Shown: positions 4,714 to 31,880 of the stretch, piece after piece | Numbering within the stretch: position 1 is the stretch's first letter | Layout: each line of letters begins with the position of its first letter | Source of the DNA: a virus | DNA: 64,000 nucleotides | Direction: 5' to 3' (one strand) | Virus record (IMG/VR): IMGVR_UViG_3300037189_006220 | Span: 32,001-96,000 of that record | Program-made: the position numbers and the translations under genes | The notes under the pieces: model-generated | What the model saw: only the letters and a program-made list of their open reading frames with translations | The model's database searches: none | What the model was told of the DNA's origin: nothing

Positions 4714-5100
4714 TTACTTTTCTGCCGAGATGCTTCGGGCAGTTTCAGGTCGGTTCCAATCAGACTCCGACTCCAGAGTTGCCCAATCGTCTTCAGTCCA
4801 CTCGCTCGTGTCTACAAGCGCGAGTGACGAAGCATCTCCGTAGTTACCATCTTCGGCAAAGTAGGTGAGCGAGTTAGGAAGAACATTCCCATTATGGAAG
4901 CCAAGCGTATTGCTCAACTTTGCGTGGATATCCCAATCAAACTCATCACCATTTTCCATTACCTCATCGGGTCGAACCCAAGTCTGCGTCTCGGGGTCGA
5001 ACCAAGAGTTCGTGCCTTTCCACGCCATAAGAGTTTCGTCGTCGATGAAGAACCGATTGGTGTTCGTGTCGTAGTGGACTACGAAATGGATTTGCGCCAT
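4714..5100 (-). CDS. hypothetical protein
   Basis: ORF with conserved leader; YFAEDGNYGDA motif. Confidence 0.7.
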   Translation of the reverse strand: MAQIHFVVHYDTNTNRFFIDDETLMAWKGTNSWFDPETQTWVRPDEVMENGDEFDWDIHAKLSNTLGFHNGNVLPNSLTYFAEDGNYGDASSLALVDTSEWTEDDWATLESESDWNRPETARSISAEK

Positions 5101-16379: not shown

Positions 16380-16706
16380 CTAGAGGATAACGTGGCTAGA
16401 CAGCAGAGCATCCAGAGCACCTCGCGGTTTAGCTCCGGGAATCCGAGTCACAATCTCGGCATTGTTGATAAGCAACATAGTTGGAATGGAGTTGATGCTG
16501 TATTGCTTTCCAAGTTCTGGTTCTTCGTCAATGTTTACTTTGACAATCTTGAGGTTGTCACCGTATTGGTCAGCAAGAGAATCGAGAATGGGGTTCATCG
16601 CGTTGCACGGACCACACCATTCTGCCCAAAAATCAACCAACACGAATCCGTGGTGGAGGACTACATCTTGCTCAAATGTCTCAGTCGTTGTCTTCACTAC
16701 TGGCAT
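16380..16706 (-). CDS. trxA: thioredoxin
   Basis: VLVDFWAEWCGPC, SIPT. Confidence 0.95.
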   Translation of the reverse strand: MPVVKTTTETFEQDVVLHHGFVLVDFWAEWCGPCNAMNPILDSLADQYGDNLKIVKVNIDEEPELGKQYSINSIPTMLLINNAEIVTRIPGAKPRGALDALLSSHVIL

Positions 16707-16902
16707 TGTCGTCTCCTTCAGTTTCTGGTTCTGCGTCGTCATTTAATTTTACAGGTTCAGAGCCATGCTTAGAAAAGTTGTCGCAAACATTACAGCCACA
16801 GATATATTCTTTGCCAGCCCACTCAAGAACTGGCAAACATTCAGCATGACTGTTGGTGATGCACCAGCCACAGGGTGCTTTCATAAAGACTTTCTCAGCC
16901 AT
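16681..16902 (-). CDS. small Cys-rich protein
   Basis: CGWC...H..C...CGC..C. Confidence 0.55.
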   Translation of the reverse strand: MAEKVFMKAPCGWCITNSHAECLPVLEWAGKEYICGCNVCDNFSKHGSEPVKLNDDAEPETEGDDNASSEDND

Positions 16903-29347: not shown

Positions 29348-29683
29348 AAATGTGAAAACGCAAGTTTTCCGACATGAGTAATTTCGCTACCTACTCACAT
29401 AAAATCGCCATCCCCCTCCATCTGGTTGAGTACCACTCCTAGAATATGTGAGGGGGATGGTGTTTTCTTGACAAAAAATATGTCATGTCTTTTTAAGTTA
29501 TTTAACATATTTATTCTCACTAAGCTTAATGAGAATAAGCTGACAATAAATAATTATTATATAAGTTTTAGTGATTGTCTCGGTCTGTTGAGCAGCTCAG
29601 AATTTGCTAAAATAGAAGAACAAACAATCCCCCTCTTGACCAAGAAATTGGTCATTTTTCTTCTGCCCTGAAAGGTCACAAAC

Positions 29684-29767
29684 ATGAATGAATCACAAGA
29701 CACCGTTGGCGGATACTGCATCCCCGTAGACCCGATGGACATGCTTCAGTGCGATTCCTGCCAGTAA
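29684..29767 (+). CDS. 27-aa peptide resembling the RNR alpha C-terminal redox tail
   Basis: MNESQDTVGGYCIPVDPMDMLQCDSCQ*, GAAAGG SD upstream, hairpin plus U-tract downstream. Confidence 0.75.
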   Translation: MNESQDTVGGYCIPVDPMDMLQCDSCQ

Positions 29768-29856
29768 GAATCTAACCCTCGGGTTAACGCCCGGTGCTCC
29801 TCGTAGTAGAGTTGAGTACCGGGCTTCTTTCACCCCTCTAAGACAGCTAGGACATA

Positions 29857-30789
29857 ATGTACGCCCCTGAAACTCTGGTCTTGACATCGTCAGGACACAA
29901 GCCTCTTAGTGAGCTTGATGGACACATGGTGGACGTATGGAATGGCGAAGAGTTTTCGCTAGTCCTAGTTGGACAGGCTGGAAAAGATAAGCCTCTAGTT
30001 ACCGTTGTCTTTGATACCGGAGCAGAGATTACCTGCACTCCAGACCAAACGATGTTTGTCCAGAATGGATACTTCGACCACACAATTTCTCGTAAGCGAG
30101 TTGCAGAAGCACTGCCCGGAGAAAAGATTGTTAAGTCCGAGTTCCCACTCTTAGAGCACGGCACTGAGCTAATTCCTAATGCTTACACCCACGGCTTCTA
30201 CACAGGAGCAGAACGGTTTAAGCGTCGCCCCGGAGTTGTATCAAGACTCGCTATCTATGGTGGTCGCAGACCATGTCTAGATGAGCTTGACCTAGACCCT
30301 CGGACAGATAAGACTAACCTCTACTTCACTACAGAAATGCTTGGAGACTTCGAGGTTCCACTCAGCACTAAGTACTCACTAGAGTCCAAGCTTGAGTGGC
30401 TAGCTGGACTTTTTGATAGTGGTCTTATTAAAAGAAAAATTGGTTCACAACCAATGTGGCATCTCTACTCAAACAACTTTCAGTTTCTTAAAGACATGAA
30501 ACTTTTCATGCAGACTTTGGGAAGCGATGTTCGAGTAGTAAAAAACGAAGATATGAACCGTCTTGAATACACACTACGGTTCTCTGGAAGACCGATGCAG
30601 AACTTACGAAAGCTCGGAGTCCCAGCAAAGTATATCACCATCCCTGAAGTATCTTACAAACGACGTGGAGTTGGTTATCCACGAATTGTGAGCATCATCG
30701 ACAACAACCGCCGTGACACGGTTTACACGCTCATGGAAAAGAAAACTCACCGAGCAGTGTTCAACGGCATCTTAAACGCAACCCAATAA
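29857..30789 (+). CDS. free-standing degenerate RIR1-type intein (Hint plus LAGLIDADG remnant)
   Basis: YAPETLVLT..G...VWNGEEFS...CTP N-terminal blocks; LEWLAGLFDSG; DTVY...H..VFNGIL..Q C-terminal block; TAG two codons upstream and TAA right after Q. Confidence 0.75.
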   Translation: MYAPETLVLTSSGHKPLSELDGHMVDVWNGEEFSLVLVGQAGKDKPLVTVVFDTGAEITCTPDQTMFVQNGYFDHTISRKRVAEALPGEKIVKSEFPLLEHGTELIPNAYTHGFYTGAERFKRRPGVVSRLAIYGGRRPCLDELDLDPRTDKTNLYFTTEMLGDFEVPLSTKYSLESKLEWLAGLFDSGLIKRKIGSQPMWHLYSNNFQFLKDMKLFMQTLGSDVRVVKNEDMNRLEYTLRFSGRPMQNLRKLGVPAKYITIPEVSYKRRGVGYPRIVSIIDNNRRDTVYTLMEKKTHRAVFNGILNATQ

Positions 30790-30808
30790 CTAACAAGGAG
30801 AAACAACA

Positions 30809-31798
30809 ATGGCAATTCTAGGAACCGGCATCCAAGAGGGACTCCTCCTGAAGCCAGTCAAATATCAGTGGGCAATGGACTTGTACGACCAAGCAGTTGC
30901 CAATACTTGGTTCCCCAACGAAATCCAACTAGGCGAAGACATCGCTGACTTCAAAAAGATGTCTGAGGATGAGCAACACGCTATTACGTTCTTGATGTCA
31001 TTCTTTAACCCATCAGAGCTTATTGTGAATAAGGCTCTTGCCTTCGGTGTCTACCCTTACCTAAATGCACCCGAGTGCCACCTCTACCTTGCTAAGCAGA
31101 TGTGGGAAGAAGCAAACCACTGCATGTCGTTCGAGTACGTCCTTGAGACGTTCCCTGTAGACCGTAAGAAAATTTATGAACAGCATGTTGCTGTAGACAG
31201 CATCAAAGCCAAGGAAGACTTCGAGGTCAAGTTCATTAAGCGCATGACCGAAGATACCATTGACATCAACACCGTAGAGGGAAAGCAGGACTTCGTCCGC
31301 AACCTCGTGGCTTACTCGGTCATCATGGAGGGTATCTGGTTCTACTCGGGCTTCATGGTGGCTCTGAGCTTCCGTCAGCGCAACCTACTTCGTAACTTTG
31401 CCTCACTGGTGGACTGGATTGTCCGTGACGAGAGCCTTCACCTCAAGTTTGGTATCAACCTCATTCTTGAGGTACTCAACGAGAATCCTGAAATTGTCAC
31501 AGACGAGTTCGCAGCCGAGATTCAGCAGATGATTTTTGATGCTGTTGACATGGAGATTACCTACAACAAGGAGCAGTTCCCCAACGGTATCCTTGGACTC
31601 AACGCTGACTATGTTAGCCAATACACCAAGTACCTCGCTGACCGCCGTCTTGAGGAGCTTGGATTCCCCCCACACTACAACGTGGGTAACCCTGCTAAGT
31701 GGATGGCTGCGGCTAATGATACTCTTCAGCTTGTGAACTTCTTTGAGTCCACCAACACAAGCTATGAATCAAACGCATCAGCTGCTACTGGTAAGTAG
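30809..31798 (+). CDS. nrdB: ribonucleotide reductase class I beta subunit (class Ic signature)
   Basis: W.P.EI, EEANH, MEGIWFYSGF, RDESLH, NFFE...Y. Confidence 0.95.
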   Translation: MAILGTGIQEGLLLKPVKYQWAMDLYDQAVANTWFPNEIQLGEDIADFKKMSEDEQHAITFLMSFFNPSELIVNKALAFGVYPYLNAPECHLYLAKQMWEEANHCMSFEYVLETFPVDRKKIYEQHVAVDSIKAKEDFEVKFIKRMTEDTIDINTVEGKQDFVRNLVAYSVIMEGIWFYSGFMVALSFRQRNLLRNFASLVDWIVRDESLHLKFGINLILEVLNENPEIVTDEFAAEIQQMIFDAVDMEITYNKEQFPNGILGLNADYVSQYTKYLADRRLEELGFPPHYNVGNPAKWMAAANDTLQLVNFFESTNTSYESNASAATGK

Positions 31799-31880
31799 TA
31801 AGTGATAGGCTCTTTAAAGAGTCAGTTGCTTTACCAATAAGAAAGCCCCCACCAATCGGTAGGGGCTTTTCTTATGCTTG

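Follow-up and report, generated by a model that had tools for sequence, protein, structure and literature searches.

Why should a phage carry the gene for the small, beta subunit of ribonucleotide reductase (RNR) when it has none for the large, catalytic alpha subunit, and what is a minute open reading frame (ORF) that resembles the very end of the missing alpha doing upstream of it? The question is raised by a locus in a stretch of 64,000 nucleotides (hereafter the window), corresponding to bases 32001-96000 of virus record IMGVR_UViG_3300037189_006220 (120,518 bp, 48% G+C, with 87-bp direct terminal repeats). A preliminary description, made from the letters of the window alone, had pointed to three consecutive genes on the plus strand, and the ORF calls place all three as it had stated; the thioredoxin gene to which it referred is also present, on the minus strand. 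The four features are the following.

29684..29767, plus strand: tail-peptide micro-ORF, 27 amino acids (aa) and a stop codon, ending ..VPVDPMD.LQCDSCQ-stop, with GAAAGG 8 nucleotides (nt) before its ATG
29857..30789, plus strand: intein-like ORF, 310 aa, with a LEWLAGLFDSG motif and no exteins
30809..31798, plus strand: nrdB, 329 aa, class Ic-type (R2c-like), PF00268, with AAGGAG before its ATG
16380..16742, minus strand: thioredoxin, 120 aa, recognised as an ORF with the motif WCGPC

In class I and class II RNRs, the C-terminal Cys pair is normally tethered to the enzyme that it serves. The sequence comparisons reported here suggest a class I RNR in which this redox tail is a separate micro-protein, an arrangement common to a bacterial family, the Microbacteriaceae, and to its phages. 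In the phage of the window, the peptide is probably the separate redox tail of a class I (Ic-type) alpha subunit, acting in trans on the tail-less NrdA of the host.

A conserved tail peptide

The product of the micro-ORF, MNESQDTVGGYCIPVDPMDMLQCDSCQ-stop, follows the pattern C-x10-C-x2-C-Q-stop. From IMG/VR, 33 loci were taken in which NrdB shares 66-93% identity with that of the window, and a peptide of this kind was found in 21 of them, often beside nrdB. The linkage to nrdB, which the preliminary description had proposed to look for in related phages, is thus conserved. Among the 12 loci without a peptide, five have almost no sequence upstream of nrdB. When whole records lacking the peptide near nrdB were considered, three out of five had it elsewhere, including the two that are complete, and the other two were fragments. 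The ending C-x2-C-Q-stop was invariant in 17 out of 17 and in 22 out of 22 aligned peptides; D, P, C, C and Q do not vary, and a neighbouring Pro and Met are also conserved. Of the pattern as first noticed, C-x2-C-Q-stop is therefore a property of the family, whereas the first Cys varies.

The ratio of nonsynonymous to synonymous polymorphism (pN/pS), calculated over the last 17 codons, was 0.20 for 67 distinct peptide sequences pooled and 0.31 for 17 phage peptide sequences, with synonymous sites near saturation and third codon positions the most variable. This codon pattern marks the 27-aa ORF as a genuine gene, maintained by purifying selection.

The peptide has no family in Pfam, NCBIfam or PHROGs, and the only NCBIfam row obtained, TIGR03026 (E 0.032), scored 13 bits where the cut-off is 189.8 and is noise. 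Exact sequences of related peptides, 25-28 aa long, are deposited in public records (GenBank/UniRef; P0158-P0165). Many Microbacteriaceae records name them "ribonucleotide-diphosphate reductase subunit beta", which is wrong and amounts to a spreading annotation error, and one Clavibacter operon copy was deposited as "Ribonucleotide reductase, alpha 2 subunit". The suggestion that the architecture was undescribed must accordingly be qualified: peptides were already on deposit under misleading names, but our literature search, outside the scope of which most subscription journals fell, turned up no publication that deals with a class I tail peptide or its motif strings.

The peptide is homologous to fused NrdA tails

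To which protein did such a tail belong? The NrdA of one phage relative (L023) was compared by phmmer with 1.84 billion representatives. P0001 (58% identity) ends in a fused ..VKVCPIDPAERAQCDSCQ-stop, P0002 in a fused ..ACPTDPAERALCESCQ-stop, and P0120 in a fused ..RRGFG..VVDGSACPIDPQERLQCESCQ-stop. The motif ..CP.DP....C[DE]SCQ-stop is common to these three tails and to the peptides, and more distant NrdA representatives end in C.IDNPDCE[SA]CQ-stop. Of the representatives, 133 were at least 650 aa long and had a YY motif close to the C-terminus; CxxC(x0-2) closes 125 of them and CxxCQ 90, and seven have no Cys in the last 40 residues.

Since the nearest full-length NrdAs end in the same motif, the peptide appears to be the detached tail of this NrdA clade, fusion being the norm elsewhere. 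The likeness with the covalent class I tail (P0001, P0002, P0120) includes the position of ..P.DP....C..CQ-stop, at the extreme C-terminus and after a flexible linker; the difference is that here the tail is translated apart from the body, and that the upstream third Cys is often lost. The initial identification of the peptide as an alpha tail is thereby upheld, the peptide being homologous to fused NrdA tails and its cognate NrdAs having no tail Cys. We also considered whether tail splits could be a common trait of NrdAs, and rejected this, as a second phage NrdA lineage was fused in 73 of 73 scorable loci (7 of the 80 loci were unscorable). Two representatives that end abruptly, P0034 and P0072, may be further splits.

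Tail-less NrdA and two peptide copies in the Microbacteriaceae

Bacterial genomes, one per species, were scanned with a degenerate pattern, which gave 469 stretches, 460 of them confirmed. The best 80 of these 460 came nearly all from Microbacteriaceae (e.g. Aurantimicrobium, Clavibacter, Leifsonia, Salinibacterium, Gryllotalpicola). The stand-alone micro-ORF found there is near-invariant between genera (M..NDTVGGYAVPVDPMDLLQCDSCQ-stop), and neither nrdA nor nrdB lies within 5 kb of it in any of the 80 loci; in Aurantimicrobium its neighbours are housekeeping genes. The same genomes also carry a class I nrdA-nrdB operon. The NrdA tail encoded by this operon was Cys-free, with RKGFGF motifs, in 8 of 8 scorable genomes, and in seven of eight hosts a second peptide copy, MN....EYFVPVDPMDELQCDSCQ-stop, sits between nrdA and nrdB. 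The junctions between nrdA and the peptide differ by genus, with either an overlap (in L119 the peptide ATG overlaps the nrdA stop) or a gap of 2 to ~10 nt; a slippery site common to them was not observed. In Gryllotalpicola, nrdB comes directly after nrdA and the peptide exists as the stand-alone copy only. The preliminary description held that the phage itself had split its alpha. On this point it has to be corrected, as the split belongs to the Microbacteriaceae host lineage and is shared by its phages.

The Cys-free NrdA ends (L023, L032, L119-L128) contain one or two (K/R)(K/R)GFGF motifs, and the fused P0120 has the motif as well, just before its tail. The motif is basic, and could be where the acidic peptide docks.

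A tandem element was found upstream of 67 of the 79 stand-alone host copies, with no other match in 1.48 Mb of loci, and the host nrdA operons are preceded by the same tandem element. In a published description, NrdR boxes consist of two 16-bp boxes with conserved C4, A6, A8, T9, T11 and G13, separated by a linker of 15-16 bp (PMC13584703). Box 1 of the tandem element (e.g. ACACTACATGTAGTGG) fits six of these six positions, and pairs of boxes with at least five of the six positions in each were present in 51 of 79 stand-alone promoters, against 2 of 402 background windows. The box linker measures 16 bp in the nrdA promoters of L119 and L121. We read the tandem element as pointing to a co-regulation of the peptide with the RNR genes, with the spacing of the boxes at the stand-alone copies (see below) as a caveat. 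In these stand-alone loci (L039-L118), ~90-190 nt before the DP codon, the box linker also contains a conserved palindrome, AATGACAC-NN-GTGTCATT, which the nrdA promoters do not have and which may be the site of a second regulator. Rfam, run on five host loci, matched tRNAs only, which means that no known riboswitch accounts for the conserved DNA upstream.

A class Ic beta subunit close to that of the hosts

The NrdB of the window matched the Pfam family Ribonuc_red_sm (PF00268) with an E-value of 5e-76 and 256 bits, for a cut-off of 33.6. Its nearest solved structures were 1syy, 4d8f and 2ani (E 4e-76, residues 14-324), which are those of Chlamydia trachomatis R2c. In the alignment with 1syy, ..FFNPSE.. 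stands opposite ..FFSTAE.., and ..EEANHCMSF.. opposite ..EEAVHTHTF... This places a Glu at metal ligand 1, and a Phe at the position of the class Ia radical Tyr. Given these two residues, the class Ic label of the preliminary description is justified. The likeness with the class Ic beta structures lies in this Glu and this Phe, and the difference in the partner alpha, which is here tail-less.

The phage NrdB is 77-84% identical, over its full length, to eight host NrdBs, and it has the same C-terminal ..NFFESTNTSYESNA.. as they have. The phage thioredoxin would be a candidate reductant of the peptide disulfide.

The fit between the peptide and an alpha subunit was addressed by complex prediction. 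For the NrdA of a phage relative (L032) and its own 35-aa peptide, the score was 0.51, the best of three controls being 0.00. Of 80 solved complexes, 58 attained the mark applied, as did 2 of 110 mismatched pairs; only 7 of those 80 did so at scores of 0.60 or below, where both passing mismatches also lie. The three runs agreed on at least 51% of contacts, the partner had a predicted local distance difference test (pLDDT) value of at least 56, and custom alignments were used. This prediction lends weak support to the binding of the peptide to NrdA.

No alpha subunit in the phage, and layouts in its relatives

Profiles for class I/II RNR, class III RNR and NrdJ (PF02867, PF13597 and TIGR02504, respectively) gave no match across the whole 120,518-bp record, while control genomes were matched, and tblastn of a relative's NrdA against the whole phage genome gave a best E-value of 1.1. 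The absence of nrdA first reported for the 64 kb thus extends to the entire record. This absence is strong, not absolute, because CheckV rates the record 71% complete, although it has terminal repeats. A genome with an intact-tailed nrdA elsewhere, and a peptide devoid of conservation, would have spoken for random fragments; we looked for both and found neither.

One phage relative (G002) contains a 703-aa ORF (L036, G002:C1:3461-6805) with ..YNPCAEQSL.. and a weak match to PF02867 (E 3e-4). This ORF is a divergent class II-type RNR, and the same phage (L015) has a peptide abutting nrdB. A hidden alpha of this divergent NrdJ type was considered for the phage of the window and rejected, as the ORF has no homologue in its genome.

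Gene order in the relatives fell into the following layouts.

L030: peptide, nrdA interrupted by a true intein, nrdB
L023, L032: peptide, intein as an ORF of its own, nrdA without intein (805 aa), nrdB
L003, L031, L033 and the window: peptide, free-standing intein ORF, nrdB, no nrdA
L004, L012-L015, L018, L021: peptide immediately before nrdB
L008-L011, L020, L026, L027: peptide after nrdB or kilobases distant

Because the relatives that keep nrdA have the order peptide, (intein), nrdA, nrdB, the layout of the window is that of the ancestral operon minus nrdA, rather than the wreck of an nrdA. In the NrdAs of L023, L030 and L032, YYLH is followed by ~40 residues which are Cys-free and contain a KKGFGF motif. 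In five of the loci where the peptide immediately precedes nrdB (L012, L013, L015, L018, L021), the peptide ORF, stop included, ends at the first base of nrdB.

Two other origins of the peptide were tried and rejected. Against its being the decayed end of a deleted nrdA stand its place ahead of a still intact nrdA in relatives and the selection acting on it. An N-extein, or an exon spliced to either the intein or nrdB, is likewise rejected, as stop codons and ribosome-binding sites part the three ORFs.

In L026 and L027 (9124-9264), whose NrdB is the most distant (66% identity), a 46-aa ORF right after nrdB ends in ..HNDPSTDFVCDSCQ-stop; it resembles a diverged version of the peptide with an extension at its N-terminus. 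Two further members, both unannotated, were found directly after a holin gene in cultured phages.

L037, ~4986-5078: peptide of phage phiPsal1
L038, ~4992-5060: peptide of phage CMP1

How the peptide would work, and what else it could do

In the Microbacteriaceae and their phages, NrdA ends in a Cys-free, Gly/Ala/Pro-rich stretch with (K/R)(K/R)GFGF, and the CxxC-Q tail has a small gene of its own. In the mechanism that we propose, the acidic peptide would dock on NrdA, and its CxxC dithiol would reduce the active-site disulfide left by each turnover; thioredoxin would then re-reduce the disulfide of the peptide. A tethered tail does the same reducing job in ordinary class I enzymes. As the phage has no alpha, but has a host-like beta, a peptide and a thioredoxin, it most likely drives the tail-less NrdA of its host. 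The core of the preliminary description, namely a tail micro-protein, a splicing-dead intein, a class Ic beta, no alpha and a host alpha possibly served, holds at the computational level.

It could be, more generally, that the tail has become a diffusible dithiol shuttle of ~26 aa with an NrdR-type gene, dosed apart from the enzyme, and that phages exploit it either through the peptide alone or through beta, tail and thioredoxin together, an escaped intein standing beside. We propose this wider picture tentatively, and about the whole of it we lean slightly towards doubt.

Several observations weigh against a tail acting in trans on the host NrdA. The third Cys that many fused tails have varies among the peptides, and the exact peptide of the window was not found in a collection of 15 billion proteins. 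The complex prediction gave a weak score. In the host promoters, the box linker is of 17 bp in 44 of the 51 pairs, of 16 bp in four and of 19 bp in three, against the 15-16 bp mentioned above, and NrdR-type boxes are absent from the phage loci and from the phage genome, the phage peptide being without a clear promoter. Leifsonia, at least, has a second alpha of another type (L123), which retains its own ..EGCVSCML-stop tail (CVSC), so that NrdAB may not be the sole RNR. In the phages of Pontimonas (phiPsal1) and Clavibacter (CMP1), the peptide follows a holin gene and no RNR is annotated in the stretches; in phages, it is thus not strictly linked to RNR, yet could serve the RNR of the host. 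Finally, many relatives, and this phage, hold the peptide and nrdB without nrdA, which a beta-linked role fits too.

Such a role is the best placed of the alternatives, and an unlikely one. The peptide, though derived from an alpha tail, would now work with NrdB, for the loading or protection of its Mn/Fe cofactor, or as a redox partner of beta. It would account for the nrdA-less phages which keep the peptide beside nrdB, with the stop/start overlap seen in the five loci cited above, and for the complete relatives which have nrdB and the peptide and no PF02867 match. However, the host peptide follows nrdA, the stop of which it overlaps in L119, the homologous tail has a known job on alpha, and the stretches seen of phiPsal1 and CMP1 contain the peptide and no annotated RNR.

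We find it more improbable still that the phage peptide is a decoy or a regulator, which would act as a rival of the host peptide or sequester thioredoxin or NrdA sites, and so throttle or redirect the synthesis of deoxyribonucleoside triphosphates (dNTPs). Small eukaryotic RNR inhibitors offer an analogy. Small phages which have the peptide and no RNR annotated in the stretches seen would suit such a function, and so would the greater variability of the phage copies (pN/pS of 0.31, versus 0.20 pooled). Yet every residue invariant in the host family is kept in the phage copies, CxxCQ included, and phage relatives with a tail-less nrdA of their own carry the peptide as well. The beta and the thioredoxin of this phage, moreover, point to boosting, not blocking.

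Least credible is an absence of any action in trans, the peptide being joined to NrdA by frameshifting or read-through and the phage copy being an inert remnant or a leader ORF for translation coupling: the frame before the peptide ATG is open in several host operons, and the micro-ORF abuts downstream genes in several phages, but the junctions vary by genus with no slippery site seen in common, ~460 copies stand alone, none of the 80 examined lying within 5 kb of nrdA or nrdB and most being behind their own operator, selection acts on the amino-acid sequence of the peptide, and Gryllotalpicola has a stand-alone copy only.

A free-standing intein beside the peptide

The 310-aa ORF between the peptide and nrdB is bounded by in-frame stops, a TAG 9 nt ahead of its ATG and a TAA right after its terminal Gln, and has no +1 Cys, Ser or Thr of an extein. 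By tblastn it matched 305 phage records, 292 of which cover at least 80% of the query, at ~30-32% identity and over query residues 3-306; the matches are inteins inside phage RNR alpha genes. It aligned end to end with two true inteins, that of a class I NrdA (L030; ..SSNL/C...GQ/CTEI.., slashes marking the intein borders) and that of a class II RNR (L001; ..ATNP/C...GQ/CGEE..), both inserted at the catalytic Cys. In the window ORF, Met-Tyr replaces Cys1, and TPDQ replaces TPYH, with loss of the block-B His. All five free-standing copies are without Cys1, block-B His and exteins, and for this reason they cannot splice. The ratio of nonsynonymous to synonymous substitution rates (dN/dS) between two of them, L003 and L031, was ~0.09. 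Of the "dead RIR1 intein" of the preliminary description, the loss of splicing is therefore retained and decay is not, the ORF being free-standing and maintained by selection.

In Pfam, the ORF matched Intein_splicing (E 0.0012) and LAGLIDADG_3 (E 0.022), both below the cut-offs, and no match was found in PHROGs. It contains two LAGLIDADG-like stretches (HGFYTGAE and LAGLFDSG), the acidic residues of which are shifted relative to the GDG/DSDG of L001; the same is true of the true intein L030.

The relatives form a graded series, from an intein inside nrdA (L030), through a free ORF next to an intein-less nrdA (L023, L032), to loci from which nrdA is gone (L003, L031, L033, the window). The series has the look of an intein on its way to becoming a free-standing homing-endonuclease gene. 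Most likely, the whole intein left nrdA and persists as a predicted free-standing gene for a LAGLIDADG-type homing endonuclease. The yeast HO endonuclease is an intein-derived, free-standing LAGLIDADG enzyme. The likeness with HO lies in the combination of Hint and LAGLIDADG parts without exteins and without splicing; the differences are that the phage ORF is phage-borne, that it sits beside a gene invaded by its intein relatives, and that its nuclease is predicted. A 2025 survey of actinobacteriophage inteins, in its accessible part, describes unusual endonuclease arrangements and no whole inteins without exteins.

Surroundings of the locus

The remaining features around the three genes are listed below.

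29637..29654, plus strand: terminator-like hairpin with a T-run, from a consensus scan, 30 nt before the peptide ATG
31842..31869, no strand assigned: palindromic GC-rich terminator-like hairpin of 12 pairs, from a consensus scan (pattern match only), between nrdB and the convergent NlpC/P60 gene
27308-29347, 31881-32864 and 33548-34441: neighbouring genes, namely dCMP deaminase-like, WhiB-like, 315-aa ORF, DUF7455, NlpC/P60 and P-loop ORF

The first hairpin may mark the end of the upstream DUF7455 transcription unit. Over the window, the consensus scan for promoters and terminators gave a number of sites not above that of shuffled sequences, and it found no promoter-like site directly before the peptide. 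The match of the 315-aa ORF to Glyco_hydro_130 was faint, and the P-loop ORF begins with GIPASGKS. In many relatives, the WhiB, DUF7455 and 315-aa genes accompany nrdB. The WhiB-like and DUF7455 genes adjoining the locus indicate an actinobacterial phage. A blastn search of the locus against 50,697 phage records gave no match, hence the phage has no close cultured relatives among them.

Discussion

Alpha subunits in pieces have been met before. A fragmented NrdA is reported to be made of two polypeptides after a split by a mobile element (PMC3045599), and the likeness with the present case is that of a class I alpha in pieces, tied to a homing endonuclease gene. Here, in contrast, the detached part is the tail alone, and the host family has the same split. 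The phage with the fragmented NrdA is, we presume, Aeh1, and its split reportedly lies inside the alpha body.

The closest published system, compared here by its working principle, is the split class II RNR of Pseudomonas aeruginosa. There, NrdJb is concluded to carry out thiol-disulfide exchange for NrdJa and to be required in vivo, and the authors call the pair a unique split RNR in a free-living organism (PMC4520616). As in our case, the catalytic body and the C-terminal Cys pair are on two polypeptides. The differences are that NrdJa/NrdJb is a class II, B12-dependent enzyme, that NrdJb is a folded subunit, which was purified and immobilised for binding, and not a peptide of ~26 aa, and that neither a second copy under separate regulation nor a phage-borne one is described there.

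What would a detached tail mean? If the reading of the peptide as a redox tail in trans is true, tethering of the Cys pair is not required in a class I RNR, and the peptide would offer a simple handle on how a tail reaches the active site and meets thioredoxin. The dose of the peptide, apparently under an NrdR-type operator, would be a new control point in dNTP supply. In public records, the naming of these peptides as "subunit beta" is an error which can now be corrected. The intein series bears on the way in which homing endonucleases move between embedded and free-standing lives. As for the phages, they could raise dNTP synthesis without encoding a catalytic subunit, and the small phages of Pontimonas and Clavibacter perhaps do so with the peptide alone, which would possibly make it the smallest auxiliary metabolic gene.

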